Of a DNA stretch of 64,000 bases, positions 29,820 through 50,464 are shown in pieces. The first letter of the stretch is position 1. Every line of letters begins with the position of its first letter. The notes below the pieces were generated by a model. It made no database searches, was not told the DNA's origin, and saw only the letters and a program-made list of their open reading frames with translations. Made by a program: the position numbers and the translations under genes. This DNA is from an uncultured Candidatus Saccharibacteria bacterium (lineage in GTDB: Bacteria; Patescibacteriota; Minisyncoccia; Phycocordibacterales; UBA5272), in the NCBI GenBank assembly GCA_964443675.1, contig CAYUDN010000002.1, forward strand, positions 2,586 to 66,585, given 5' to 3'.

Positions 29820-30251
29820 TTATCCTTTCCTCTTCTTCCACCACACCTTCATAAGAAGGTAACATGATGCAGGAAGATCAAAGATGAGAAACCATGCAAA
29901 AAACAAAAGGAACATTACAGACAAAAACATATACATCCTTCTAACAAAAAAACTTTTTATCGATGGCTGGGTATCCTTGATACTCTCAGCAATCACTAGA
30001 ATAATGCTGGAGAAAAACCCTTCTGGTACTTGCACCTTTAGGTCAGTATGTAGCACTTCTCCAATAATCCAGTGACGAAAGAAGAGTGAAAATACCCCAA
30101 GAGATACCACAAGCAACGTCACAGTGATGTGGTTTTCTATCGAAAAAAACGGGTGCAACTTTTCAAGCTGAGTAAGAACAGCTCTGTATAGCAACAAACT
30201 CACCATACACAAGAACAACACCGCAAGAATGTTTTTCGTGGTACGCCACAT
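29820..30251 (-). CDS. Small integral membrane protein (about 4 TM), hypothetical
   Basis: Hydrophobic segments separated by short loops; lies downstream of the lipoprotein gene on the same strand. Confidence 0.4.
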   Translation of the reverse strand: MWRTTKNILAVLFLCMVSLLLYRAVLTQLEKLHPFFSIENHITVTLLVVSLGVFSLFFRHWIIGEVLHTDLKVQVPEGFFSSIILVIAESIKDTQPSIKSFFVRRMYMFLSVMFLLFFAWFLIFDLPASCYLLMKVWWKKRKG

Positions 30252-30363
30252 ATCGTATCCTCCAAACAGAAGTTCAACCTTTCACACTCTATACCAGAGT
30301 ATGGCAGAAGTCAAAACAAACATCGCCCCACCGAAGTGGAGCGATATTGTCCGGAAAGAGTAC

Positions 30364-31542
30364 TTACATCTTCCTCTTTCCGAACTCATAAAGAGCAACC
30401 AGGTTCACGTGCGTCTTATCCGCATAGAACCTGATGTTCTTTGGGTATGCACGGGTCATCCCTCCCCGCATACCAGTATTAACCCATCTGGCAGTTGCTT
30501 TGTATGCATGCCCTGGGGAGTGGTGGGCAGCGGCAACAAACATCACCATTTCGTCCTGGAAGCTGTTGTGCTTCGCAAGAAGAGTGGTAACACCTTTGTC
30601 ACTCAAGAACCCTGTCATTCGCAGAATGTTGTGCACCGCAAAGTACACCGCAGCAACATGATGCTGATCTCCTTCGAGATACACCACCGAGTCCGGGATC
30701 TTAACACCACCATCACGAACGAATCCGTTCACAATAGAGGCACCTTCTGTTGCTTCTTCATCTTTCCGAAGAGCAAAGGAGGTGAACTGATAGAACCCAA
30801 GCGACAGCATATCGTCATGCTTGGCAGGGGTATGCATCAGGTACGAAACCCCAGCATTCCGAAGCAGCATGTCCAGGTAAGGAACATTGAGTCGTGCGTC
30901 ACCGGGCAAAAGCTCTGTCATGCCGTACGCAATGAAGTCCTTCCCTGTAAGGTTCCTCACAATCTGCTTTGCGAGTTCGCAGCGGCGTGCATCAACGGGG
31001 TGCTTCTTATTCTTTGCGTACCGTGCACAGAGCTTCTGCCAATCAATGGACTTCTTAGCATCCTTTACAACACTGTCGGTAACAAAGATAAATTCAGAAA
31101 GAGTGCTCTTCTTCCTGTCACTTTGCATGTACCGGTCAAGGACGTAAGAAGTCTTCCCAAGAGTCGAATCCGACACGTTCTTGCGAAGAACCTTGTCGTT
31201 CCACATTGATGCCATGACAGCATCAAAGGACACATCAACAAAGCGGGGAAGCACAGCTCCTTGTTTGGGAAGTCCGAGGTGTGTGGCATAGAAGTCACTA
31301 ACCTTGGAACGAACCTGAAGGAGTGGCGCAAGGTCGATATGCACCTTTTGATTCTTTGTGGCCTCCTTCACTCCGTTGGCGGCAGCTGAAGCTGCCTCAC
31401 GCATCTCGTCTCGTGTTTGAGGACGAGAAGCGGTCGACGAAGGTATGGATGGCGACGAAACAGTAGAACCTTCTTGTTTTGAGCAACCAACCAAGGTCAC
31501 CACAACAAGAAGAAGGTGCAGGGCGTAATTGCGAATGTTCAC
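30364..31542 (-). CDS. Lipoprotein, hypothetical (GC-elevated gene)
   Basis: GTG start with GAGGAG SD gives MNIRNYALHLLLVVVTLVGCSKQ (signal peptide plus lipobox LVGC). The track ORF starts 27 codons upstream without a signal peptide. GC about 48-50% by eye. Confidence 0.5.
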   Translation of the reverse strand: MNIRNYALHLLLVVVTLVGCSKQEGSTVSSPSIPSSTASRPQTRDEMREAASAAANGVKEATKNQKVHIDLAPLLQVRSKVSDFYATHLGLPKQGAVLPRFVDVSFDAVMASMWNDKVLRKNVSDSTLGKTSYVLDRYMQSDRKKSTLSEFIFVTDSVVKDAKKSIDWQKLCARYAKNKKHPVDARRCELAKQIVRNLTGKDFIAYGMTELLPGDARLNVPYLDMLLRNAGVSYLMHTPAKHDDMLSLGFYQFTSFALRKDEEATEGASIVNGFVRDGGVKIPDSVVYLEGDQHHVAAVYFAVHNILRMTGFLSDKGVTTLLAKHNSFQDEMVMFVAAAHHSPGHAYKATARWVNTGMRGGMTRAYPKNIRFYADKTHVNLVALYEFGKRKM

Positions 31543-31644
31543 AACATCTCCTCTATCTAAAAGAATGGGTAAAAACAAACAACAATCAATATCTATTATA
31601 TCACAAAACTTGATAAAAGTCAATGACTGTGCTACACTCCTTAC

Positions 31645-36600: not shown

Positions 36601-36711
36601 GCATGTTTGTTGTCTGTATTCTATATATCTACGCTCTATTATTTCTTTTTCCGTCTTTCACCCAACACCTGCTACCTATTACCTATCACCTATTCATGCT
36701 ACACTACAATC

Positions 36712-39648
36712 ATGCGAAAATTCTCGGTTTTTCTTTGTATCATAACTCTTTCTATCGCTCTTTTTGGTGGGTTTTCTACAATAAAAACATCTGGTGTTGT
36801 TTCAGCTCAAACAAGAGAAAACTTAAATAAATCTACTTATACACACGAAATCGCACAACAACAAGTTCTAAACTTGTTTGATTCTTACCAAAATAATGCA
36901 ATAAACTTTTTAATAGAACAGACAAAAGGATTTACTTCGCAACAAGGAATGGCGGAGGCGAAGGCGCTTGAGGAACTCAAACCAAAACTTACTGCGCTTA
37001 TTTTACAATCTAAAAATATTTATTTAGAAAACTATGATAAATCCTTACCGCCTTGGACAGCACAAATAAACGCAATATCAAAATTACAAGCTTTTTTTGG
37101 TCCCGGTTTTGCAAATTTACGAGTAACATCTAAAGCTGCTGGACTTCTTGCGGTCACTGAAACCTTTAAAGGTAACATAAGGACTGAATTAGAGATAGCG
37201 AAAGCCGTAGAAAGAGGGGAAGGAAGTGGAAACCTAACTTCAAGCACAACTTCTGTAGAGAATGCTGCGAAAACAGTTGCTGCTATTAAAGAAAAATCCG
37301 ATAAAGGAAAATGTACTTTTTGGAACTGGACCATCTCTGATTGTATTTCTGAAGGAGTAACTTGGATTATTAAAGTTGTTTTCCTTCAAATCGCCGGATA
37401 TCTTGTATGGCTCACCGCCAACATGTTCAACTACGCCATGCAATTCGGGGTGCTTGAATTTGCAAAATGGGCACCTAATACTCTTTATCCAATATGGATG
37501 ATAGTAAGGCAAACCATTTCCTTGGTCTTACTTTTTATTGGTATCTATGTGGGGATTTTGTATATCACTGGAGATAACCGTGGTAATTTTGAGCGTTATC
37601 TTCCTTGGTTTGTTATCTTTGCTTTATTTGTTAACTTCTCCTACCCTCTTACAAGAACAGCTATTGATATTTCTAATATCGTAACACTCAAAATGTATGC
37701 AGCAACAATGGGAGAACAAGCGTTATCTGCTAGTATTACCTCCAAAGATACTGCGGGTTTTTTGATCCTACAACGACTCGGTCTTGATAATCTTATTACA
37801 AGCGCAACAGCAGACAGTGCATCAAAAGCGGGAACGAATCTCTATAATTCTATAGACTCTATTCCTGGTGCACTTATTGCGGTAGTGTTTGTGTTCTATA
37901 CCGCATATGTCTTTTTTATGGTAACAGCACTTCTTGTTATGAGAACTGTTGCTCTTGTGTTTATTACCATCGCCTCTCCAATACTTCTTATTGATTCTGT
38001 TATTCCTCTTCTTGGTGATAAAGCAAAAACTGTTCGAGGATTGTTTGTTTCACAACTTTTTGTGGCTCCAGTGTTTGTTATTTTACTTTCGATAACTCTT
38101 AGTTTTATGCAGGTCTTTAGTACACTTAACACTTCATTAACAGGAGCAGCAAAAGGTTCCGGGGAAAGCTCAATAGTTACCTTCTTCAATATCTTGATCA
38201 TGCTCGTAATGCTCACTATTACAGTAAAAGTAACAAAAAGTACCGCCGGCTCTCTTGGGGAACAAGCAACGGAATGGATGGGAAAGGTTGGAGGGTTTGC
38301 AACAGGGGGTGTTGGGGCGCTTGGCCGACAAACACTTGGAAGAGCGGCTGCCAAGTTACGTGACAGCAAGTGGGTAGAAAGGAATCAGAATTCGTTTATT
38401 GGAAGACGAGCGTACGACCTTAGTAACTCCGTTGCGAAGAGTAGCTTTGATCTTCGTAACTCTTCTGTGGTTGCAAAAGGTGCTGGTATGCTTGGTTCAC
38501 AAGGTGGACTCTTTAAGGGTGGAATGGGGCAGGGCGCAAAAACAAACTTTGATGACACTTCCAAAAAACGACAAGAAAAAATCGATGCACGTCTTACAAG
38601 AATCCAAACAAGACATGAGCGCGACGAATATGAAAAGGATGACAAAGGAAAAATTGTCTATGATGCAAACGGCCTTCCAAAAATGAAACACAGAAAGGGG
38701 GATGTTGATCAAGCTGGTGTTGAAGCACGAGACCGTTATGTAGAAAACAAGGGTTCACTTTTTGGTCTTAGTGGTCTCACTGCAAAACAAAAAGAGGAAA
38801 TGGATCAAAAACTCATCGATCAAAAAGAAAAAGAGAGGATGGAAGAATATGGAAAACTAAAAACAAAAGAACAGAAAGCAGCTTACATCGCCAACCTTTC
38901 TCAAGAACTAGAAAAAATAAAAAAAACAAAAGGAGAAGAAAACCTTACTTCTGTTGATGCACGAACTGTCGTAAGTGTACTTCAAAAACTTACCAAACAA
39001 GAAAAAGACAAGCTTGATTCTGGGGCTGCTTACCGTGAAGCGTATAACGAATACAAAAACCTAGAAGACCTTGGGGATGGTGGCAGAAAGATGCGAGAAT
39101 TCTTTGGCAACCAACCAAAAGAAGTGCAAGATTACATTCTTGCAAAAGATCATGGTGAAGCGTTAAAAGATAACGAAAAAATAACAAAACAAAACGAAGA
39201 CAAGGCTTACAGAGAAGCAACTCTACAAAACCAACGAGATGCGGTACAAGCACAAAGAGAATCAACAGAAGTACAAAGAAAGCTCACTGAGGCGCTTAAT
39301 AATAAACAAAACGAGGAAGCAGGAGGAACAACACCTTCTGATAAAGACACAAGAAGGGACAACCCTAACTTCGATACAAGTGGAATGACCTTAGAAACAG
39401 AACGTGCTGCGGAAGCGCGTGTTAGTGGCAAAAAAGAGGAAGAACCTGTTGGAAAACCTGTAAGCTTTGCTTCTACTTCTTCTGGTGGATATGGTGCAAC
39501 GACAGTTACTTTTACCCCACCACAAACTTTTGCTTCACGAATGCAAAAACGAGGAGGCCAGGGGTCGCCTTCGACAGTAACAACTACCACTCCTCCAAAA
39601 AATAATCCTAATACAGAGGCGGAACCGGTAGAGGAGGAAGTTGTGTAG
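36712..39648 (+). CDS. VirB6/TrbL-like polytopic membrane protein with a long charged C-terminal tail
   Basis: Signal peptide, N-terminal extracytoplasmic domain, cluster of about 6-7 TM helices (aa ~240-560), then K/E/Q-rich tail. Architecture and position next to VirB3/VirB4 fit Gram-positive VirB6 analogues. Start taken at ATG 36712. Confidence 0.5.
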   Translation: MRKFSVFLCIITLSIALFGGFSTIKTSGVVSAQTRENLNKSTYTHEIAQQQVLNLFDSYQNNAINFLIEQTKGFTSQQGMAEAKALEELKPKLTALILQSKNIYLENYDKSLPPWTAQINAISKLQAFFGPGFANLRVTSKAAGLLAVTETFKGNIRTELEIAKAVERGEGSGNLTSSTTSVENAAKTVAAIKEKSDKGKCTFWNWTISDCISEGVTWIIKVVFLQIAGYLVWLTANMFNYAMQFGVLEFAKWAPNTLYPIWMIVRQTISLVLLFIGIYVGILYITGDNRGNFERYLPWFVIFALFVNFSYPLTRTAIDISNIVTLKMYAATMGEQALSASITSKDTAGFLILQRLGLDNLITSATADSASKAGTNLYNSIDSIPGALIAVVFVFYTAYVFFMVTALLVMRTVALVFITIASPILLIDSVIPLLGDKAKTVRGLFVSQLFVAPVFVILLSITLSFMQVFSTLNTSLTGAAKGSGESSIVTFFNILIMLVMLTITVKVTKSTAGSLGEQATEWMGKVGGFATGGVGALGRQTLGRAAAKLRDSKWVERNQNSFIGRRAYDLSNSVAKSSFDLRNSSVVAKGAGMLGSQGGLFKGGMGQGAKTNFDDTSKKRQEKIDARLTRIQTRHERDEYEKDDKGKIVYDANGLPKMKHRKGDVDQAGVEARDRYVENKGSLFGLSGLTAKQKEEMDQKLIDQKEKERMEEYGKLKTKEQKAAYIANLSQELEKIKKTKGEENLTSVDARTVVSVLQKLTKQEKDKLDSGAAYREAYNEYKNLEDLGDGGRKMREFFGNQPKEVQDYILAKDHGEALKDNEKITKQNEDKAYREATLQNQRDAVQAQRESTEVQRKLTEALNNKQNEEAGGTTPSDKDTRRDNPNFDTSGMTLETERAAEARVSGKKEEEPVGKPVSFASTSSGGYGATTVTFTPPQTFASRMQKRGGQGSPSTVTTTTPPKNNPNTEAEPVEEEVV

Positions 39649-40632: not shown

Positions 40633-41058
40633 ATGCAATTTCGAGTACCACAATTCATTGATATTGAAGATAAAGTAATCGGACCTTTAACTCTAAAGCA
40701 GTTTGGGTACACTTTAGGTGCAGGAGGTTTCTCATTCCTTATTTGGACCTTTATCCCTATTCATTTTTTGGCGGTTATTTTTATTATTCCAGTAGCAGGA
40801 CTCTTTCTTGCTCTTGCTTTTGTGCAATTTAATAACAGGCCTTTTGGTGCTCTTCTTGAAAGCGCTTTCTCTTATTTTACTAGTGCAAAAATATACACAT
40901 GGAAACAACCTGAACCAGAAAAAATGGAAACTTCTGTTGATCACGTGATCGCATCCACACAAAAAGAAATGATTATAGAAAAAACAAATAGGGATAGAAT
41001 ACATGACATTTCTCTTGGTCTTGATGTGTTCGAAAAAAGTAATGCAAAAGAAGAGTAG
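40633..41058 (+). CDS. VirB3/PrgI-like small membrane protein
   Basis: 141 aa. N-terminal FIDIEDKVIGPLTLKQFGY followed by two TM helices. Position immediately upstream of VirB4. Confidence 0.45.
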   Translation: MQFRVPQFIDIEDKVIGPLTLKQFGYTLGAGGFSFLIWTFIPIHFLAVIFIIPVAGLFLALAFVQFNNRPFGALLESAFSYFTSAKIYTWKQPEPEKMETSVDHVIASTQKEMIIEKTNRDRIHDISLGLDVFEKSNAKEE

Positions 41059-41216: not shown

Positions 41217-41858
41217 TTGTATACTACAACAAGTATGGCACAAGGAGCATCAAGTCAACAATTCGTACCAATAGAACGTGTTCGTGATGGGGTAGTCGTC
41301 TTAAAAACCGGAGAACTTCGTTCGGTTCTTATTACCAACTCTCTTAACCTTGGACTAAAAAGTGAAGACGAGCAACAGGCGGTACTTGTTCAGTTCCAAA
41401 ACTTTCTCAACTCTCTTGATTTTCCTGTTCAATTTTTTATTGAATCAAGAAAACTTAACATAAAACCTTATATAGAAATGCTTCAAGAAAGAAGTAAGGA
41501 GGTAAAAGAGGATCTTCTTAAAATTCAAATACATGAGTACATGGGATTTATTACCAAGTTTACCGAGGAAAGCAATATTATGACAAAACACTTTTTTATT
41601 GTTGTTCCTTACTTCAACCCTTCTGCACAAGACATTTCTCCTACTTCTGTGTTTTCTGGAACACTCAAAAACAATATGGGTAAAAGTGACGTTTTTGAAA
41701 CAGCAAGAACACAACTAGAGCAAAGAACTCTCACGGTAATACAAGGACTTTCTCGTTTTGGTATACGAGCACAACGTCTTGGTACAGAGGAAGTTATAGA
41801 GCTTTTTTATAAACTTTTTAATCCAAGCGAAGGTACACATAATGCACCTAAAGTATAA
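41217..41858 (+). CDS. VirB4/TrbE N-terminal domain, separated from the ATPase part by a single in-frame TAA
   Basis: VVLKTGELRSVLITNSLNLGLKSEDEQQAVLVQFQNFLNSLDFPVQFFIE resembles the CagE/TrbE/VirB4 N-terminal domain. Same reading frame as 41862-43688, with TAA at 41856-41858. Confidence 0.7.
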   Translation: MYTTTSMAQGASSQQFVPIERVRDGVVVLKTGELRSVLITNSLNLGLKSEDEQQAVLVQFQNFLNSLDFPVQFFIESRKLNIKPYIEMLQERSKEVKEDLLKIQIHEYMGFITKFTEESNIMTKHFFIVVPYFNPSAQDISPTSVFSGTLKNNMGKSDVFETARTQLEQRTLTVIQGLSRFGIRAQRLGTEEVIELFYKLFNPSEGTHNAPKV

Positions 41859-41861
41859 TAT

Positions 41862-43688
41862 ATGGGACTCTTTGATTTTTTATCACCAAAAACAACAACA
41901 CCATCAGCTTCTCCTGTAACTCCCGTTCTTCCTGAGCAGGTGTACAAAATCGCAGAAATGCAATTAAAGGATATTATTGCACCAAGCGCTCTTGAAATAC
42001 AATCAAAATCTCTTAACCTTGGCACTACTATTGTTCGTTCTTTTTTTGTTATCTCGTATCCTCGTTTTCTTACCGATAGCTGGCTAAGTCCTATAATTAA
42101 CTTGGATAAAGTTTTTGATATAGCTATTCATGTTACCCCACTTAACACAGGGGAGGTTATGAAAACTTTTCAACGTAAAGTTGCAGAAGTAGAAAGCCAG
42201 ATCATGTCTAGAGACGAAAAAGGTCTTGTTCGTGACCCTTCTTTAGATGTTGCGTATCAAGACCTTGAAGATCTTCGTGACGGACTTATTCAAGCGCAAG
42301 AAAAAATGTTTGAAGTTTCTTTATACATAACTCTCTATGGAACAACTAACGAAGAGCTTGATAAAGCTGAAAATGAAATAAAAAATATTCTCGAAAGTAG
42401 ACTTGTATATGTAAAACCAGCCCTTTTCCAACAAGACACAACATTTCTCTCCACACTTCCTCTTGGTGTAGATACTGTTCAAATAAAAAACAAACTTAAC
42501 ACTTCACCACTTTCTTCTTTCTTTCCGTTTGTTTCTTTTGATCTTTCATCTGATAGGGGTATTTTGTACGGACTAAACCGCCACAACGGAAGTCTTATTC
42601 TTTTTGATCGATTCTCTCTTGAAAACTATAACTCTATAGTGTTCGCAAAGTCGGGTTCTGGAAAAAGCTACTTCACTAAACTAGAAATCTTACGTACACT
42701 CATGTTCGACACAGAGGTAATCATCATCGACCCTGAACGTGAGTACGAGTTCCTTGCAGAATCTGTTGGTGGTCGATATTTTGACATCTCTTTGGTCGGT
42801 GAACACCACATTAACCCATTTGATCTTCCTCACCCAACAGAAGATGAATCACCTTCTGAGGTGCTTCGTTCAAATATTGTAAACCTTGTAGGACTCTTCC
42901 GTGTCATGCTTGGAGGTCTTACCCCTGAAGAAGATGCAATTATTGATCAAGCTATTACCGAAACGTACGCACTCAAAGATATTAATGGGGATACAGACTT
43001 CACACAACTCGAACCACCCCTTCTTTCTGATTTTGAAATGGTGCTTACTGGTATAGACGGCTCAGAAAGTCTTGTTCAAAGACTAAGCAAATACACCAAA
43101 GGTACTTGGTCTGGATTTCTTAACCAGCCATCTAATGTTGATATCAATAAAAAACTTGTTTGTTTTTCTATTCGAGACATGGAAGATGAACTTAAGCCTG
43201 TTGCAATGTATCTTATTACTCACTTTATTTGGAACGCAGTACGTAAAACATTACGTAAACGTCTTCTTGTGGTAGATGAAGCGTGGATCATGATGAAAAA
43301 TGACGACACAGCATCATTCCTTTTTGGTCTCGCAAAACGTGGTCGTAAATATTATCTTGGACTTGCAACTATTACTCAAGACGTAGGAGACTTTCTTAAA
43401 TCTCCATACGGACTTCCAATTATTACCAACTCTTCTATTCAAATCCTTCTTAAACAATCTCCTTCTTCTATTGATATTGTTCAAAAAACCTTCAACTTAA
43501 CCGATGAAGAAAAGTTCCTCCTTCTAGAATCTGGAGTAGGGGAAGGAATTTTCTTTGCAGGTCTTAAACACGTAGCCATCAAAGTGGTTGCTTCTTATAC
43601 CGAAGACCAGATTATTACAAGTGATCCTTCACAACTCCTTAAGATTCAACAAATGAAAGACGAAGTTGCTCAGTCAAAATCAGTATGA
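41862..43688 (+). CDS. VirB4/TrbE-family type IV secretion ATPase (C-terminal ATPase portion)
   Basis: Walker A FAKSGSGKSYFTK, Walker B LLVVDEAWIMM, and C-terminal motifs typical of VirB4. Confidence 0.85.
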   Translation: MGLFDFLSPKTTTPSASPVTPVLPEQVYKIAEMQLKDIIAPSALEIQSKSLNLGTTIVRSFFVISYPRFLTDSWLSPIINLDKVFDIAIHVTPLNTGEVMKTFQRKVAEVESQIMSRDEKGLVRDPSLDVAYQDLEDLRDGLIQAQEKMFEVSLYITLYGTTNEELDKAENEIKNILESRLVYVKPALFQQDTTFLSTLPLGVDTVQIKNKLNTSPLSSFFPFVSFDLSSDRGILYGLNRHNGSLILFDRFSLENYNSIVFAKSGSGKSYFTKLEILRTLMFDTEVIIIDPEREYEFLAESVGGRYFDISLVGEHHINPFDLPHPTEDESPSEVLRSNIVNLVGLFRVMLGGLTPEEDAIIDQAITETYALKDINGDTDFTQLEPPLLSDFEMVLTGIDGSESLVQRLSKYTKGTWSGFLNQPSNVDINKKLVCFSIRDMEDELKPVAMYLITHFIWNAVRKTLRKRLLVVDEAWIMMKNDDTASFLFGLAKRGRKYYLGLATITQDVGDFLKSPYGLPIITNSSIQILLKQSPSSIDIVQKTFNLTDEEKFLLLESGVGEGIFFAGLKHVAIKVVASYTEDQIITSDPSQLLKIQQMKDEVAQSKSV

Positions 43689-44656
43689 AAATAAAAAAAA
43701 AATTACTTTTTGTTTTTTTAACCACCTCAACTTCTTTTCTTTTTGTTTTTGCTCAAATATCATCAACAATATCATTATCACCAGAAAACCCAGAACCAAA
43801 TAGTACTGTAGAACTCACTCTTGAAAGTTACTCCTTTGACACAGGAACAGCTATGATTACTTGGAAAGTAAACAATAAGATTGTTGCGCAAGGGCAGGGT
43901 GTTGATTCTTACTCACTACCAACAGGTTCTGTTGGTCAATCTACAAAAGTTACCGTGAGCGCAATAACAGGGGACGGTAGTGCAATAGAACAAGAAGTAG
44001 TAGTTACTCCGTCTTCTGTTTCTCTTTTATACGAAGCACCAAAAAGTTATACACCTCTTTTATATAAAGGAAGATCTCTTCCTGGTGACGGAGCTCTTTT
44101 TACTGTTACCGCCTTTCCTCAAATAAGTGAAAATAATACTATTGTTCCACCTTCTTCTTTAGCATACACCTGGTATCTAAATGACTCCATAATGCAAAGT
44201 TACTCTGGGGTAGGTAAACAGTCTGCAGAACTTCGTATTGATTACTTAAGATCAAAAAATACTGTACGTGTTATTGTTCGTAGTCAAAAAGGAAATATTG
44301 CTTCAAAAACAATTACTGTACAACCACATGAACCAATGCCTCTTCTTTATCTTTATGATCCGATTTTTGGTTCCATGTTTACACAACTTGTAGGAAAACG
44401 TTTCGAAACAATAAAAGATTTTACTCTATCTCTTGAACCTTTTTATGTAACACAGGAAGATGAGGGTGACTCATCGGAATATACATGGTTTTTGGATGGA
44501 CTACTTTCTACACCAAGTGATGGGAGGGTTCTTGGGTTCCACCCAAAAGAAAATAGTTACGGAATAAAAAATTTAACTATTAAAGTGTATGGTGCTGATA
44601 GAAGACTTCAACAAACAGAATTAGAAACTGAGATTCTTTTTGATACAAGAAAATAA
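43685..44656 (+). CDS. Secreted beta-rich protein, hypothetical T4SS-associated
   Basis: Signal peptide MKIKKKLLFVFLTTSTSFLFVFAQ. Start overlaps the VirB4 stop (ATGA). Confidence 0.5.
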   Translation: MKIKKKLLFVFLTTSTSFLFVFAQISSTISLSPENPEPNSTVELTLESYSFDTGTAMITWKVNNKIVAQGQGVDSYSLPTGSVGQSTKVTVSAITGDGSAIEQEVVVTPSSVSLLYEAPKSYTPLLYKGRSLPGDGALFTVTAFPQISENNTIVPPSSLAYTWYLNDSIMQSYSGVGKQSAELRIDYLRSKNTVRVIVRSQKGNIASKTITVQPHEPMPLLYLYDPIFGSMFTQLVGKRFETIKDFTLSLEPFYVTQEDEGDSSEYTWFLDGLLSTPSDGRVLGFHPKENSYGIKNLTIKVYGADRRLQQTELETEILFDTRK

Positions 44657-44670
44657 CACTTTATATCTTT

Positions 44671-45495
44671 ATGATAAACGTTTCTTATACAGCCCTCGAA
44701 CAATCTTCACTCACCACACTAGGAATACAGTCAGTTTCTTTTAATAGTGGTAATACTTCTTTCTTTTCTGTTATTAGTTTTTTAATGATGCTTTCTTTTA
44801 TTGCGGTTGTTGGTGTTGCTTCTATCATGATAGTAAAAGGGGGAATGTTGCGTATGAAGGCTTCGGAAGAGTCAATACGTTCTTCTAACGAAGTGTTTAG
44901 ACGTGTGGTATTTGGTGTTCTTGGTGTTTTTAGTTTGTTTATTATTATTACCACTATTAATAGTGGGTTAATTACTGGAGATATTGACTTGGGTAAGTTA
45001 AGGGTGGGGTCGTCAGTCGGAACACCATCTACTGCGACTAAAGAAGCTGCTCAACCTCCAGCAAAAGCCGCAAATGCACCGAGCACAGGTTCAGCAAGTT
45101 GGACAAAAGCAATTCAGCAAGACCCAGAAATAAGAGCGCAGCTAAAAAATAACTCCATCTCTGTTAACAAACCAGCATGCACGAGTGAAGGAGCTTCTAG
45201 TTGTACAACTGTTGGAGGGTTACATAAAGACACAATAGATATGCTTATTTCTTTAAGGAAATCTTGTAGCGGAGAAATAGAAATAACAGGGGGAACAGAA
45301 AATGGACACAGGTCTCACGGTATTGATAAAACACCTGTTGATCTTAGTATAAAGGATGGAACACTGAATGCTTGTATTGAAAAGTTTTCAACCGGTCCAA
45401 ATGTTGGAACTTGGTGTAAAAGAACCTTTACCTCTTTTGGATATATTTTTTGTGACGAGAATAGTGCAACACCGCACTGGCATGTGTATAAGTAA
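44671..45495 (+). CDS. Membrane-anchored (two-TM N-terminal module) protein with a C-terminal putative peptidoglycan peptidase-like domain
   Basis: The N-terminal 110 aa are identical to the N-terminus of the 46833 gene. The C-terminus has GG...SH...D and HWH, reminiscent of VanY/M15-type zinc peptidases (weak). Confidence 0.5.
   Translation: MINVSYTALEQSSLTTLGIQSVSFNSGNTSFFSVISFLMMLSFIAVVGVASIMIVKGGMLRMKASEESIRSSNEVFRRVVFGVLGVFSLFIIITTINSGLITGDIDLGKLRVGSSVGTPSTATKEAAQPPAKAANAPSTGSASWTKAIQQDPEIRAQLKNNSISVNKPACTSEGASSCTTVGGLHKDTIDMLISLRKSCSGEIEITGGTENGHRSHGIDKTPVDLSIKDGTLNACIEKFSTGPNVGTWCKRTFTSFGYIFCDENSATPHWHVYK
44691..45011. repeat. 321-bp direct repeat copy A (identical, one mismatch, to 46847-47167)
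   Basis: Nucleotide-level identity covering the shared N-terminal module of two genes. Confidence 0.85.
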
Positions 45496-45535
45496 CAACA
45501 TTACAGCTATATAATAACCTGCTATACTTACTAGT

Positions 45536-46831
45536 ATGGAAAGTTCTAGTAATAAAAGGATTCTTATTTTGGTTGGTTTTACTCTTTTTTTTGTTATCAT
45601 TGTTCTCGTTTGGTATTTTTTCTATGCAAAACCAGTAATAGACCCAACAAACAACACCACAAGAGATGTAAAGAAAGTTAAAGATCTACCTCCTGGTTTT
45701 CAGTTTATAGAAAAAATCTGGAAAGGTGATCAAACCACAACAACAAAAACAGAAATCATAGATCCTCTCAGTAAACCACTTATTCATGTATGGGATCGTG
45801 GAGCAACAGGAATGTACTTCACCTCCATTCCAATACTTCAAGAAATTAACGCCACAACAACAGAAGGTACAACAACAATTACTGTAAAGAAAACAATTCA
45901 CGCAACATCAAGCGTTCTTATGTTTGTGGACACATTAACAGGGTATGTGTATGGATATGTATTAGATACAGGGAAAATATTCCAAATTACCAACACTTCT
46001 CTTCCTGGAATATCTGATGCGTACATTTGGAACAGTGGTAGAAAAATAATTCTACGTTATATAGATCAAGAAAAAAATAATATTGTCGGAGTTATTGCAA
46101 CTATTGGGACTATTAATCAAAACACAGAACCTTTACCTTTACAAAATATCAAATACCTTAACTCAGAAGTTACTTCTGTTGCGGTTAATAAAACAAAAAC
46201 AGAAGCATCATATATGGTAAGCACAGAAAAAGGAAGTTCTGTGTATACCACAGACGGCGACACTTCTCGTTTTGTTGTTTCTTCTCCTTTTAAAGAATGG
46301 GATCTTTCTTATGGTGGTAATACACTTTACGTAACACCAAAACCTTCTGCGTATGTAGAAGGAAGTACTTTTTCTCTTCCGTATTTTACCTCTGAAATAA
46401 ACAATAAAACAGGTCTTCTGTCTAACCCTGGTGTTTTTGGTGTACTGCTTAGTAGTATGTGGACAGATGACGGGTTACGTACTTTCTTTTCTTCTCATGG
46501 GAATATTTCTGTGCTTCCAATAAAAACACTTGCTACTAAATGTGTTTGGGGTCGCACCTCGTTTGTTGTATGCGCAGTACCAAGAGAACTTCCTGGATAC
46601 ACAGAAGGTCTTCCTGATGATTGGTATCAAGGAAGATACTCTTTTTCTGATGATCTTTTTATTGTTAACCAAAACAATAATGAAAAGTACATGTTATATT
46701 CTTTCTCACAAGAGGATGGAGATTTTGATATTTCTTCTATAGAAACAAATATCGATAACACATTGTATAGTTTTATTAATCAAACAGATCAAAATCTCTG
46801 GCTTCTTAACTCTAACTTACTTGGTGACTAA
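45536..46831 (+). CDS. N-terminally anchored extracytoplasmic protein, hypothetical
   Basis: TM anchor ILILVGFTLFFVIIVLVWYFF; T/N-rich extracellular domain. Confidence 0.45.
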   Translation: MESSSNKRILILVGFTLFFVIIVLVWYFFYAKPVIDPTNNTTRDVKKVKDLPPGFQFIEKIWKGDQTTTTKTEIIDPLSKPLIHVWDRGATGMYFTSIPILQEINATTTEGTTTITVKKTIHATSSVLMFVDTLTGYVYGYVLDTGKIFQITNTSLPGISDAYIWNSGRKIILRYIDQEKNNIVGVIATIGTINQNTEPLPLQNIKYLNSEVTSVAVNKTKTEASYMVSTEKGSSVYTTDGDTSRFVVSSPFKEWDLSYGGNTLYVTPKPSAYVEGSTFSLPYFTSEINNKTGLLSNPGVFGVLLSSMWTDDGLRTFFSSHGNISVLPIKTLATKCVWGRTSFVVCAVPRELPGYTEGLPDDWYQGRYSFSDDLFIVNQNNNEKYMLYSFSQEDGDFDISSIETNIDNTLYSFINQTDQNLWLLNSNLLGD

Positions 46832-46832
46832 A

Positions 46833-47816
46833 ATGATTGAATACAAAGCCCTCGAACAATCTTCACTCACCACACTAGGAATACAGTCAGTTTCTTTTAA
46901 TAGTGGTAATACTTCTTTCTTTTCTGTTATTAGTTTTTTAATGATGCTTTCTTTTATTGCGGTTGTTGGTGTTGCTTCTATCATGATAGTAAAAGGGGGA
47001 ATGTTGCGTATGAAGGCTTCGGAAGAGTCAATACGTTCTTCTAACGAAGTGTTTAGACGTGTGGTATTTGGTGTTCTTGGTGTTTTTAGTTTGTTTATTA
47101 TTATTACCACTATTAATAGTGGGTTAATTACTGGAGATATTGATTTGGGTAAGTTAAGGGTGGGGTCTGGTGATGCTATAACAACAAACAACCTCACCAC
47201 TAAAGAGGTAACAACTTCTTCCAAATCTACCTCTGGAGCAGTTAATGCAGGGTGTCAGAGCAAAGAAATAGTAATTCAAAATATTCAAAACAATGATGCG
47301 TGTAAAGGGGTAAGCTGTTCTGCGTTATTTGGTTGTAATTATTCTTCCTATTTAGCAACCATAGAAAAATATACATCTGGTGATCAAGAGTTAAGAAAAA
47401 TGGCAATTGTAACACTTTGTAAAGAATCAAAAGGTGTACTAACAGCAAATAATAAAAACCCTGACGGAACCTATGATTGTGGTGTTATGCAAATCAACCA
47501 AAAAGATCCTTGTCCTGCTTCGTATGATGTAGATGCTAATATTCAACAAGGAATTAATAAACTACGTTCTCTTAAAAATAATACAAACCAGACATATCCT
47601 GGTTTTCCACGGTGGGGAGGTGTTTTTGCTTCATATAATTGCTGTAGTAATGGAACAGCACCGAACAGTGCAAGTAATGATTGCAACACATCTTCTGGTT
47701 TTCCTGGAAGTGTTCCTAAATGGGGTTGTCCTATTAATCCTGGGGATGGACAATTTAATATGTGCACCGTAAAAAATTACACCTGTGACCTTGTAAAATG
47801 TATGGAGCAGTTATAG
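46833..47816 (+). CDS. Membrane-anchored lytic transglycosylase (VirB1-like SLT domain) sharing its N-terminal module with the 44671 gene
   Basis: SLT family-1 signature: catalytic ES in CKESKG and GVMQIN downstream. N-terminal two-TM module identical to the 44671 protein. ATG at 46833 (track start 46821 is TTG). Confidence 0.6.
   Translation: MIEYKALEQSSLTTLGIQSVSFNSGNTSFFSVISFLMMLSFIAVVGVASIMIVKGGMLRMKASEESIRSSNEVFRRVVFGVLGVFSLFIIITTINSGLITGDIDLGKLRVGSGDAITTNNLTTKEVTTSSKSTSGAVNAGCQSKEIVIQNIQNNDACKGVSCSALFGCNYSSYLATIEKYTSGDQELRKMAIVTLCKESKGVLTANNKNPDGTYDCGVMQINQKDPCPASYDVDANIQQGINKLRSLKNNTNQTYPGFPRWGGVFASYNCCSNGTAPNSASNDCNTSSGFPGSVPKWGCPINPGDGQFNMCTVKNYTCDLVKCMEQL
46847..47167. repeat. 321-bp direct repeat copy B
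   Basis: See copy A at 44691-45011. Confidence 0.85.
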
Positions 47817-49126: not shown

Positions 49127-50464
49127 ATGGACTACTCACAACTTTGGAATAGTGCTTTATCTCAGATCGAGATAGAACTTTCTCGAGTTAATTTTAATAC
49201 ATGGTTCAAAAACACAAGAATCATTGACTATAAAGAAGGGGAGGTAACTATTGGTGTTCCTAATGAGTTCGTAAAGGATTGGCTTAATCAAAAATATCAC
49301 AAATTTATTCTTCGTATTTTACGCACCATACACGAAGGTGTTCGTTCTGTTGTGTTTACTGTCGTCAAACCAGAAACCTTGCAGAAAAAATCTCAAACTA
49401 TTTCTATAGTAGGACAACCACTTCCTCTTAATGATCTTTATATTAATAAAGATGACGGCCTTAACCCACGATACACCTTTGAAAATTTCATTGTTGGCTC
49501 TTTTAACGAAGTTGCTTACGCTTGTTCACAAGCAGTAATTAATGGACTTGGTATTATTTATAACCCTCTCTTTATTTATGGAAACACCGGGCTTGGAAAA
49601 ACTCACCTTCTTCAAGCAGTAGGGAATACAATAAAGAAAAAATATCCTGAACGAAAAATTTTCTATACCTCTCTTGAGAAGTACTACATGGATTATGTAA
49701 ACGCTACAAATCTTAATAAAATAAATAGCTTTAAAGAAAAATATCGTAAATTTGATGTTTTTATAATGGATGATATTCAGTTTATTAATGGAAAAGAAAG
49801 AACACAAGATGAATTATTCCATCTTTTTAACTCTCTTTATGAGATGAATAAACAGATTATCTTTTCTTCAGATAAACACCCTAATCTTATTCAAGGACTT
49901 GAGGATCGTCTTAGATCACGTTTTAATCACGGAATGATTGTTGACGTGAATATCCCTTCCATGGAATCAAGACTTGCTATTCTTCAAATAAAAACAAAAG
50001 AATATCGAGAAAAAATTCCACACGAAGTATTGCAATATATCGCTGAGTCAATTCAAGGTAACATTCGTGAACTAGAAGGAGTTATGACTTCTATCCTTGG
50101 ACATATTCAAGTAAAACAACAAGTAGTCACCCTTCTTGATGTAAAAAACCTTCTCAAAAACTCAGTACGTGCTAAGAAAAGTATTTCTATTCCTGAAATA
50201 GTAAAGATTATTTCTGATTATTACCATATTCCTGATGTATATATTTACAACAAAACAAGACGAAAGGATGTAGTAAAACCACGACAAATTGTAATGTACA
50301 TCTTGCGTGAAGATTTTGATATCTCATACCCAATGATTGGAGACAGATTAGGAGGAAGAGACCACACCACAGTAATACACTCGTATGAAAAAATTAAAGG
50401 GATGGTTAAAGAAAACCCACAACTTAGTAGAGAAATAGAAGACATTAGAGCAATGTTGGTGTAA
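49127..50464 (+). CDS. dnaA: Chromosomal replication initiator DnaA
   Basis: AAA+ Walker A NPLFIYGNTGLGKTHLL, sensor motifs, and C-terminal DNA-binding domain (...VMYILREDFDISYPMIGDRLGGRDHTTV). Confidence 0.95.
   Translation: MDYSQLWNSALSQIEIELSRVNFNTWFKNTRIIDYKEGEVTIGVPNEFVKDWLNQKYHKFILRILRTIHEGVRSVVFTVVKPETLQKKSQTISIVGQPLPLNDLYINKDDGLNPRYTFENFIVGSFNEVAYACSQAVINGLGIIYNPLFIYGNTGLGKTHLLQAVGNTIKKKYPERKIFYTSLEKYYMDYVNATNLNKINSFKEKYRKFDVFIMDDIQFINGKERTQDELFHLFNSLYEMNKQIIFSSDKHPNLIQGLEDRLRSRFNHGMIVDVNIPSMESRLAILQIKTKEYREKIPHEVLQYIAESIQGNIRELEGVMTSILGHIQVKQQVVTLLDVKNLLKNSVRAKKSISIPEIVKIISDYYHIPDVYIYNKTRRKDVVKPRQIVMYILREDFDISYPMIGDRLGGRDHTTVIHSYEKIKGMVKENPQLSREIEDIRAMLV

Follow-up and report, generated by a model that had tools for sequence, protein, structure and literature searches.

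This work concerns a 64,000-nucleotide (nt) stretch of DNA, hereafter the window, from an uncultured bacterium deposited as Candidatus Saccharibacteria (GenBank assembly GCA_964443675.1, contig CAYUDN010000002.1, positions 2,586 to 66,585), in which two genes, here called A and B, begin with almost the same DNA and end in unrelated, putatively wall-cleaving domains. Gene A (44671..45495, plus strand; 274 amino acids, aa), which was delimited by its open reading frame (ORF), orthologs, and synteny, encodes an N-terminal pilin-like hairpin, a low-complexity linker, and a Cys-containing C-terminal head that is a putative LAS/M15-like metallopeptidase. Gene B (46833..47816, plus strand; 327 aa), delimited by its ORF and family matches, encodes the same pilin-like hairpin, a linker, and a Cys-rich head predicted to be an SLT lytic transglycosylase; the TTG at 46821 proposed by the ORF finder as its start was rejected, as homologues use the ATG at 46833. 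Between the two repeat copies lies a gene for a 431-aa protein (45536..46831, plus strand), which was recognized as an ORF with an N-terminal transmembrane (TM) helix and had no family match in the searches.

Nucleotide comparison of the window demonstrated that the shared 5' module consists of two direct repeats 2.16 kb apart (offset 2156), one in gene A (44691..45011, plus strand) and its counterpart in gene B (46847..47167, plus strand). Over 321 nt they are distinguished only by a C/T mismatch at 44988/47144, which changes GAC to GAT, both encoding Asp, and is thus synonymous; the single-nucleotide difference claimed in an earlier sequence-only reading of this DNA is therefore correct. The 5' boundary of the repeat is located 20 nt past the ATG of gene A and 14 nt past that of gene B, and the 3' boundary falls at codon 114 (A) or 112 (B), within the low-complexity linker. 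Outside either end, identity is immediately at background level (~25-30%), and no relation between the A and B copies is present in the initial codons, the upstream DNA, or any downstream sequence, in agreement with the complete downstream divergence described in that reading. A near-identical repeat of 321 nt in 64 kb cannot be accounted for by chance. Neither a third copy of the module nor, besides the two copies, a stand-alone pilin or further pilin-like ORF was found within the 64-kb window.

One genome per species was scanned, which yielded 46 loci (loci and contigs are cited below by L numbers), and the 23 genomes that carry both genes were compared for module identity. Orthologous heads A and B and an orthologous middle gene recur from locus to locus, in the same order and at the same spacing of ~2.2 kb. 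Full-length orthologs of gene A are 35-53% identical to the window protein, gene order is identical on all six other contigs on which gene A orthologues were traced, and the intervening gene is kept at 428-449 aa in loci with called genes. The modules, in contrast, group by genome: the nearest neighbor of a module is its own paralogue in 23 of 23 genomes, with own-pair identities of 81.6-100% at the nucleotide level (median 99.4%), whereas the best match to any other genome reaches 43-72% and the between-genome median is 56.7%. This argues against both a one-off event and an assembly artefact. Thus, the gene conversion or recombination suggested from the window is borne out in a stronger form than was claimed, as it recurs across a whole clade: repeated gene conversion makes the modules, and only this domain, evolve in concert.

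The tracts themselves differ from genome to genome. The window, L001-L004, and L006 each have their own tract shared between A and B, 299-424 nt in length with 0-5 mismatches. The 5' end lies 13-21 nt past the ATG in most genomes and 96 nt past it in L006, and the 3' end varies between codons 110 and 146. Own-pair identities form a continuum (100, 99, 98, 97, 95, 92, 87, 84, and 82%), and in the less homogenized pairs the differences are mostly synonymous and clustered at the tract edges around perfectly identical blocks, a mosaic pattern that is attributable to conversion tracts of varying length. Homogenization is also seen in distant lineages whose genes are arranged otherwise. In L044 (Moraniibacteriota), where B precedes A, the module pair is 92.9% identical over 397 nt with the signal peptide included; in L051 the two genes are adjacent and their modules 97.3% identical; and in the L007 lineage, the modules of a VanY-head gene and its SLT partner are 100% identical over at least 101 residues. 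The locus L023 (L023:6989-7987; Candidatus Nomurabacteria RYN_392, JAQBRF010000002.1), which is close to the window (VirB4 87% and DnaA 89% identical), has one gene at the A position, with an A-type 5' end and an SLT head, directly after a 322-aa gene, and lacks both head A and the ~430-aa intervening gene, exactly as a deletion by crossing-over between the two direct repeats would leave it. The repeats exchange sequence repeatedly, and products of crossing-over exist in nature.

Between genomes, the module is among the fastest-diverging segments, although it is nearly identical within each genome. Relative to the window, amino acid identities in other genomes are 89-96% for DnaA, 86-93% for VirB4, and 62-76% for YidC; the corresponding ranges are 30-54% for the module, 32-61% for head A, 41-52% for head B, 42-59% for the 323-aa protein encoded directly upstream of gene A, and 42-56% for the 431-aa protein. 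The sequence-only reading had called the module constant, a description that applies only within a genome. The whole block from the 323-aa protein through gene A and the 431-aa protein to gene B (43685-47816) is 30-61% identical when genomes with 86-96% identity in VirB4 (41862-43688) and DnaA (49127-50464) are compared, and the downstream half of the secretion cluster evolves far faster than its ATPase. Two lineages appear to have escaped homogenization: L041 (L041:3324-6566) and L042 (L042:4622-7834) have both heads at the usual ~2.2 kb spacing, and the two modules of a pair share 30% of their residues or no detectable identity. Gene B is missing from L005. In L043, a stretch of N/X in the database entry hides part of an A-type-head gene (L043:7716-7820), and its module was left out of the comparison.

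The repeat also leaves a trace in public assemblies. At least 12 of the 46 public contigs stop inside the gene B module or linker (contigs ending at the module are L018, L022, L024, L028, L029, L031-L033, L035, L036, L039, and L040), and the L007 contig begins exactly after the repeat. Such ends are typical of an unresolved repeat and would be expected if it defeats short-read assemblers. Many database proteins of the head A family are truncated fragments of 80-240 aa. The contig CAZNZQ010000005.1 (53,032 bp) carries at both ends (L032/L033) the same truncated gene B fragment, in opposite orientation relative to the contig; a terminal inverted duplication or an error of assembly at the repeat may explain this.

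With regard to the nature of the module, AlphaFold models of both proteins contain a helical hairpin (predicted local distance difference test, pLDDT, ~90; helices 31-62 and 66-96 in gene A) followed by a disordered linker, consistent with the two-TM anchor proposed earlier. From the models, charges, and profiles, the feature was annotated as a VirB2/T4SS_pilin-like two-helix TM hairpin (residues ~31-96; 44761..44958, plus strand), predicted to be N-out/C-out with the loop KGGMLRMKASEESIRSSNEVFRR in the cytoplasm. The N tail contains no Lys or Arg and the inter-helix loop six; the module has no Cys, head A six, and head B 14. The positive-inside charge distribution, together with Cys-rich heads on a Cys-free module, predicts the N-out/C-out topology and extracytoplasmic heads. 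A profile built from 31 modules was searched against 1.84 billion representatives and matched 14,469 proteins at E<=1e-3; among the top 143 matches, 89 carried PF18895 (T4SS_pilin) and six TrbC/VirB2. PF18895 exceeds its curated cut-off in the modules of an A-head relative (P0171, 33.2 bits) and of relatives with other heads (P0144, 38.4 bits; P0180, 32.6 bits; P0161; P0192), and lies just below it in the distant B-head relatives P0044, P0048, and P0049. Profile-profile alignment by hhalign of the module with stand-alone pilins of Moranbacteria-like arrays, of which Pfam assigns those tested to T4SS_pilin or TrbC, gave 90% (E 1.6e-6) with both helices covered, and the two-TM protein PrgI, used as a negative control, gave 0.1%. 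On these profile matches, PF18895-positive relatives, and alignments, we conclude that the module is, at the profile level, a divergent VirB2-like pilin hairpin of type IV secretion systems (T4SSs), within the PF18895 superfamily, which has lost its signal peptide in this clade; the view that it is a mere membrane anchor has to be corrected to this extent. The window proteins begin directly at a conserved YxxLE motif, and the distant relatives L044 and P0049 have a signal peptide. Docking of the module to the T4SS, which was also part of the sequence-only reading, is inferred from homology and gene context. In Moranbacteria-like loci (L045-L052; e.g., L046:6389-9549), a pilin-SLT fusion comes first, with 2-5 stand-alone T4SS_pilin/TrbC genes and di-pilin proteins directly behind it; the literature describes these as VirB2 arrays, and here they have a hydrolase fusion at their head.

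Head B (47253..47813, plus strand) has the features of an SLT/GH23-like domain with predicted catalytic residues E198-S199 (47424-47429), CG[VL]MQIN and SYN motifs, and the 14 Cys residues. In the family alignment, E198 is invariant and S199 near-invariant, and all 32 family members match PF01464 (SLT) with a best E of 1e-12; the window protein itself scores 19.1 bits (E 9.6e-4), just under the cut-off of 21.3. Foldseek against PDB retrieved lysozymes of the c and g types as well as MltF (probability 0.9-1.0, E 0.04-0.5). The prediction that gene B carries an SLT lytic-transglycosylase head, made from the sequence earlier, is therefore solid.

Head A (residues ~143-274; 45097..45492, plus strand) is an unannotated domain, delimited by alignments, pLDDT, and hhalign, that AlphaFold folds confidently (pLDDT >90). 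Across 50 sequences, H216 (45316-45318), D224 (45340-45342), and H269 (45475-45477) are invariant, and conservation at E210, H213, and H271 is 90% or more. When 57 sequences were used, hhalign gave 80-85% to a LAS-type pilin-fused cluster (P0161, P0180, and P0192), pairing GH.SH....VD and HWH of head A with SLHYxGRAxD and HIH of the cluster, which in turn matches the hedgehog N-domain zinc motif in PDB (E ~1e-3) and, weakly, Peptidase_M15_3. In Pfam, only one of 17 members of the head A family had a match, at E 0.15. Moreover, the gene at the A position in the L007 lineage has a VanY (M15B) head (E 1e-10). The conserved H/D/HxH residues, the alignment to the LAS-type cluster, and the VanY head in L007 make a LAS/M15-type zinc peptidase the best reading of head A, and a rather probable one. 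Of the zinc peptidase proposed from the sequence, the metal-ligand-like residues H216, D224, and H269 (with H271) and a profile link to LAS-type proteins thus stood, whereas support from Pfam, PDB sequences, and Foldseek did not appear. Foldseek matches of the full-length gene A model in PDB and BFVD (histidine-kinase or random helical proteins) were set aside as uninformative for head A because they are driven by the hairpin.

The expectation that relatives would join further heads to the same module also held. In other candidate phyla radiation (CPR) genomes, the module family is fused to SLT, a second lysozyme-like, VanY, LAS-like, NlpC/P60/CHAP, and other Cys-rich domains, and it can also stand by itself or form tandem multi-pilin proteins. 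In L019 (L019:1569-2396) and L021 (L021:4292-5164), the gene at the A position has a different head with conserved Cys and His residues on a homogenized module. This head resembles the cluster of P0053, P0074, and P0081. Its by-eye likeness to NlpC/P60 was not upheld: hhalign with a verified NlpC/P60/CHAP cluster yielded 0.3%, a Pfam search no better than E 0.027, and the L019/L021/P0053-type head was therefore left unclassified.

The two genes are located in a T4SS cluster. Upstream on the plus strand, Pfam and NCBIfam matches identified a PrgI/VirB3-like gene (40633-41058), a TrsD/TraC-like homologue of the VirB4 N-terminal region (41217-41858), and the VirB4 ATPase (41862-43688), and this core order is repeated in loci that reach far enough upstream. 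A VirB6-like protein is encoded at 36607-39648. The N-terminal region of VirB4 has a TrsD/TraC-like gene of its own, located 3 nt upstream of VirB4, an arrangement already reported for Patescibacteria. The 323-aa protein directly upstream of gene A (43685..44656, plus strand) is a predicted secreted Ig-like/beta-sandwich protein with weak Ig/BiPBP_C matches. It and the 431-aa protein have no family assignment, yet their position is conserved in nearly all related loci; NCBIfam returned nothing useful for these two proteins or for genes A and B. Downstream, on the minus strand, are yidC, rnpA, and rpmH, and after them come dnaA and dnaN. The locus is already known from Patescibacteria as an origin-proximal, relaxase-less, MPF-FATA-like T4SS (PMC12102498). 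Close relatives of the window are labeled Candidatus Nomurabacteria or Paceibacterota; many metagenome-assembled genomes from TPA_asm records with a Paceibacteria-type locus (L008-L051) are titled "uncultured Candidatus Saccharibacteria" or "Bdellovibrionales", labels that look unreliable. Elsewhere in the window, two long ORFs overlap on opposite strands (30229-31209, plus; 30364-31623, minus).

Taken together, we consider it fairly likely that the two genes encode T4SS-linked wall hydrolases on a pilin-like module that is homogenized by gene conversion. A and B would be extracytoplasmic peptidoglycan hydrolases of a chromosomal, oriC-proximal T4SS in a Paceibacteria-type CPR bacterium, A probably a LAS/M15-like zinc peptidase and B a predicted SLT lytic transglycosylase, each carried on the same N-terminal module and a disordered linker. 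Recurrent intrachromosomal homologous recombination, presumably ordinary gene conversion of the RecA type, would keep the two module copies nearly identical despite fast divergence between species, and the exchange is confined, with variable tract ends, to the sole homologous stretch, from just past the start codon to the linker. The pilin-like hairpin may route both enzymes into one T4SS/pilus assembly pathway, where gene context and analogy with the literature (PMC12102498) suggest that they act in a VirB1-like manner, breaching the cell's own wall or that of the host. Homogenization could then ensure that A and B both still fit a partner that evolves fast, or it may be a neutral effect of how close together the repeats lie.

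Several results weigh against parts of this account. PF18895 has no match at E<=0.1 in either window protein, and no Pfam pilin model was reached; the pilin assignment is at the profile level and transitive, and two-TM hairpins carry little information. The window proteins also have no signal peptide, unlike canonical VirB2-like pilins. With regard to head A, the spacing H-x7-D is not the usual, shorter LAS spacing, a shallower hhalign (17 sequences) gave only 37% to the LAS-type cluster, and no annotated relative was found in Pfam, the PDB profile search, Foldseek, or an index of 5.8 billion proteins. The diverged modules of L041 and L042 and the lack of gene B in L005 indicate that identity is not obligatory, which weakens a strong selective interpretation. 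In addition, where short-read assemblies show perfect identity, bubble merging may have raised the value slightly.

Among other explanations of the repeat, an assembly artefact, i.e., a collapsed, duplicated, or chimeric repeat made by the assembler, had been named as what would refute the sequence-only reading. Although short-read metagenome assemblies can merge near-identical repeats and many related contigs break at the module, the same architecture with genome-specific tracts in 23 genomes obtained independently, by different projects and with different assemblers, together with the continuum of identities and its mostly synonymous differences, effectively refutes it; mismatches are kept in the window and L006, the two copies lie in frame in two different genes that are each conserved, and the probability of an artefact is close to negligible. 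The window pair by itself cannot distinguish conversion from a single recent duplication or domain shuffling, in this genome or once per lineage, with no ongoing conversion. Such an event is nevertheless extremely improbable, as the clustering of modules by genome next to orthologous heads, middle gene, and spacing would need more than 20 independent identical re-fusions, and variable tract ends and mosaic blocks are present. It is scarcely credible that selection produced the identity with no recombination, whether on an embedded RNA or regulatory element or as purifying selection on the protein: the mostly synonymous nature of the differences does imply a constrained protein, but synonymous sites are identical within a genome while modules of different genomes share 30-54% of residues and ~57% of DNA positions, no sequence element is conserved between genomes, and L041 and L042 tolerate diverged modules. 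Programmed head switching, in which the repeats would serve as a substrate for reversible, phase-variation-like deletion or amplification, could draw on the exact deletion product in L023 and on the alternative heads at the A position of L007, L019, and L021; it is very improbable, as deletion between direct repeats can be reversed only from a silent donor copy, the locus showed none of the parts of a shufflon-like system (recombinase, inverted repeats, or silent cassettes), and most genomes retain all three genes.

The function of the module admits two further interpretations. A and B might be housekeeping wall-remodeling hydrolases unrelated to the T4SS, held by a generic two-TM anchor whose homogenization is neutral. 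Nearby direct repeats undergo RecA-dependent conversion without any selection, the window proteins miss PF18895, and module identity is dispensable in L041/L042 and gene B in L005. The profile and hhalign links to T4SS pilins, with their negative control, the fusion genes that head pilin arrays in Moranbacteria-like loci, and strict synteny with VirB4/PrgI in all loci render this interpretation improbable, while its neutral-conversion part is compatible with the account of T4SS-linked hydrolases preferred here. In the opposite direction, both proteins might be enzyme-bearing minor pilins, their hairpins taken up by the T4SS and built into, or placed at the tip or base of, a conjugative-type T4SS pilus, so that an "armed pilus" would present peptidase and lytic transglycosylase to the host wall in epibiotic attack or attachment; gene conversion would then be favored because both hairpins must fit the same rapidly evolving filament/translocon interface. 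The locus of this lineage has no stand-alone pilin gene. At present this proposal is doubtful.

Gene conversion between paralogues is classical in bacteria, where tufA/tufB and rRNA operons are closer within than between genomes, synonymous sites included. There, however, whole functionally equivalent genes are homogenized, whereas in A and B only a 5' domain of 300-420 nt is affected, in genes with different predicted catalytic functions. Nystedt et al. (2008, cited in PMC12102498) are said to have described the concerted evolution of the Bartonella Trw T4SS with its tandem trwL/trwJ pilus genes. As in A and B, recombination within the genome homogenizes paralogous T4SS surface or pilus genes while species diverge fast, but the Trw case concerns complete gene copies in tandem, that of A and B one domain of two otherwise non-homologous genes. 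With respect to the enzymes, head A shares with LAS/MEROPS M15 proteins (VanY, VanX, phage L-Ala-D-Glu peptidases, and the hedgehog N-domain) the His...Asp and His-x-His pattern, aligned via the pilin-fused cluster, and differs from them in having no significant Pfam, PDB, or Foldseek match, in its H-x7-D spacing, and in extra conserved cysteines, so its membership is putative. PrgK (pCF10), TraG (pIP501), and TcpG are VirB1-like peptidoglycan hydrolases of Gram-positive MPF-FATA T4SSs (PMC12857230, PMC12102498). Like A and B as predicted, they are membrane-anchored extracytoplasmic wall hydrolases with SLT and peptidase activities, encoded in a T4SS cluster near VirB4/PrgI-type genes; they combine several catalytic domains in one protein with a simple N-terminal TM segment, whereas A and B are two genes with one head each on VirB2-like two-helix hairpins that evolve in concert. 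The module and the patescibacterial VirB2-like pilins (PF18895; Wang et al. 2023, PMC10633639; Quinonero-Coronel et al. 2025, PMC12102498) belong to the same domain family at the profile level, both with a T4SS near dnaA and several pilin-type genes per locus. The published pilins are stand-alone and differ greatly from one another within a genome (identity 25% on average and 54% at most; PMC12102498), whereas the modules carry enzyme heads, are nearly identical within a genome, have no signal peptide, and remain below the Pfam threshold. T4SS-linked anchored hydrolases, patescibacterial VirB2-like arrays, and concerted evolution of Trw are thus already known; the literature searched, to which this negative is limited, gave no account of pilin-hydrolase fusions, of their domain-limited concerted evolution, or of patescibacterial gene conversion.

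In practical terms, the repeat systematically causes short-read assemblies to break at this point and has left head A as an unannotated protein family. In evolutionary terms, the locus offers an unusually clean natural case of domain-limited concerted evolution, in which a fast-diverging domain of 100 residues stays identical between two genes whose catalytic parts are unrelated, in more than 20 species, and for which nature supplies controls in the escapes of L041/L042, the deletion in L023, and the head replacements in L007, L019, and L021. Patescibacterial T4SSs have no recognizable relaxase and coupling proteins, and their pilins are unknown in other monoderm systems (PMC10633639, PMC12102498, PMC12857230). 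In the one species tested, Southlakia epibionticum, the T4SS is essential for epibiotic growth (PMC10633639), and PMC12102498, with reference to Wang et al. 2023, reports a peptidase and a homologue of lysozyme, both encoded downstream of virB4 in Saccharibacteria, as essential to such growth. Hydrolases on a pilin scaffold would provide a concrete, testable idea of how the T4SS passes the peptidoglycan of the cell itself or of its host.

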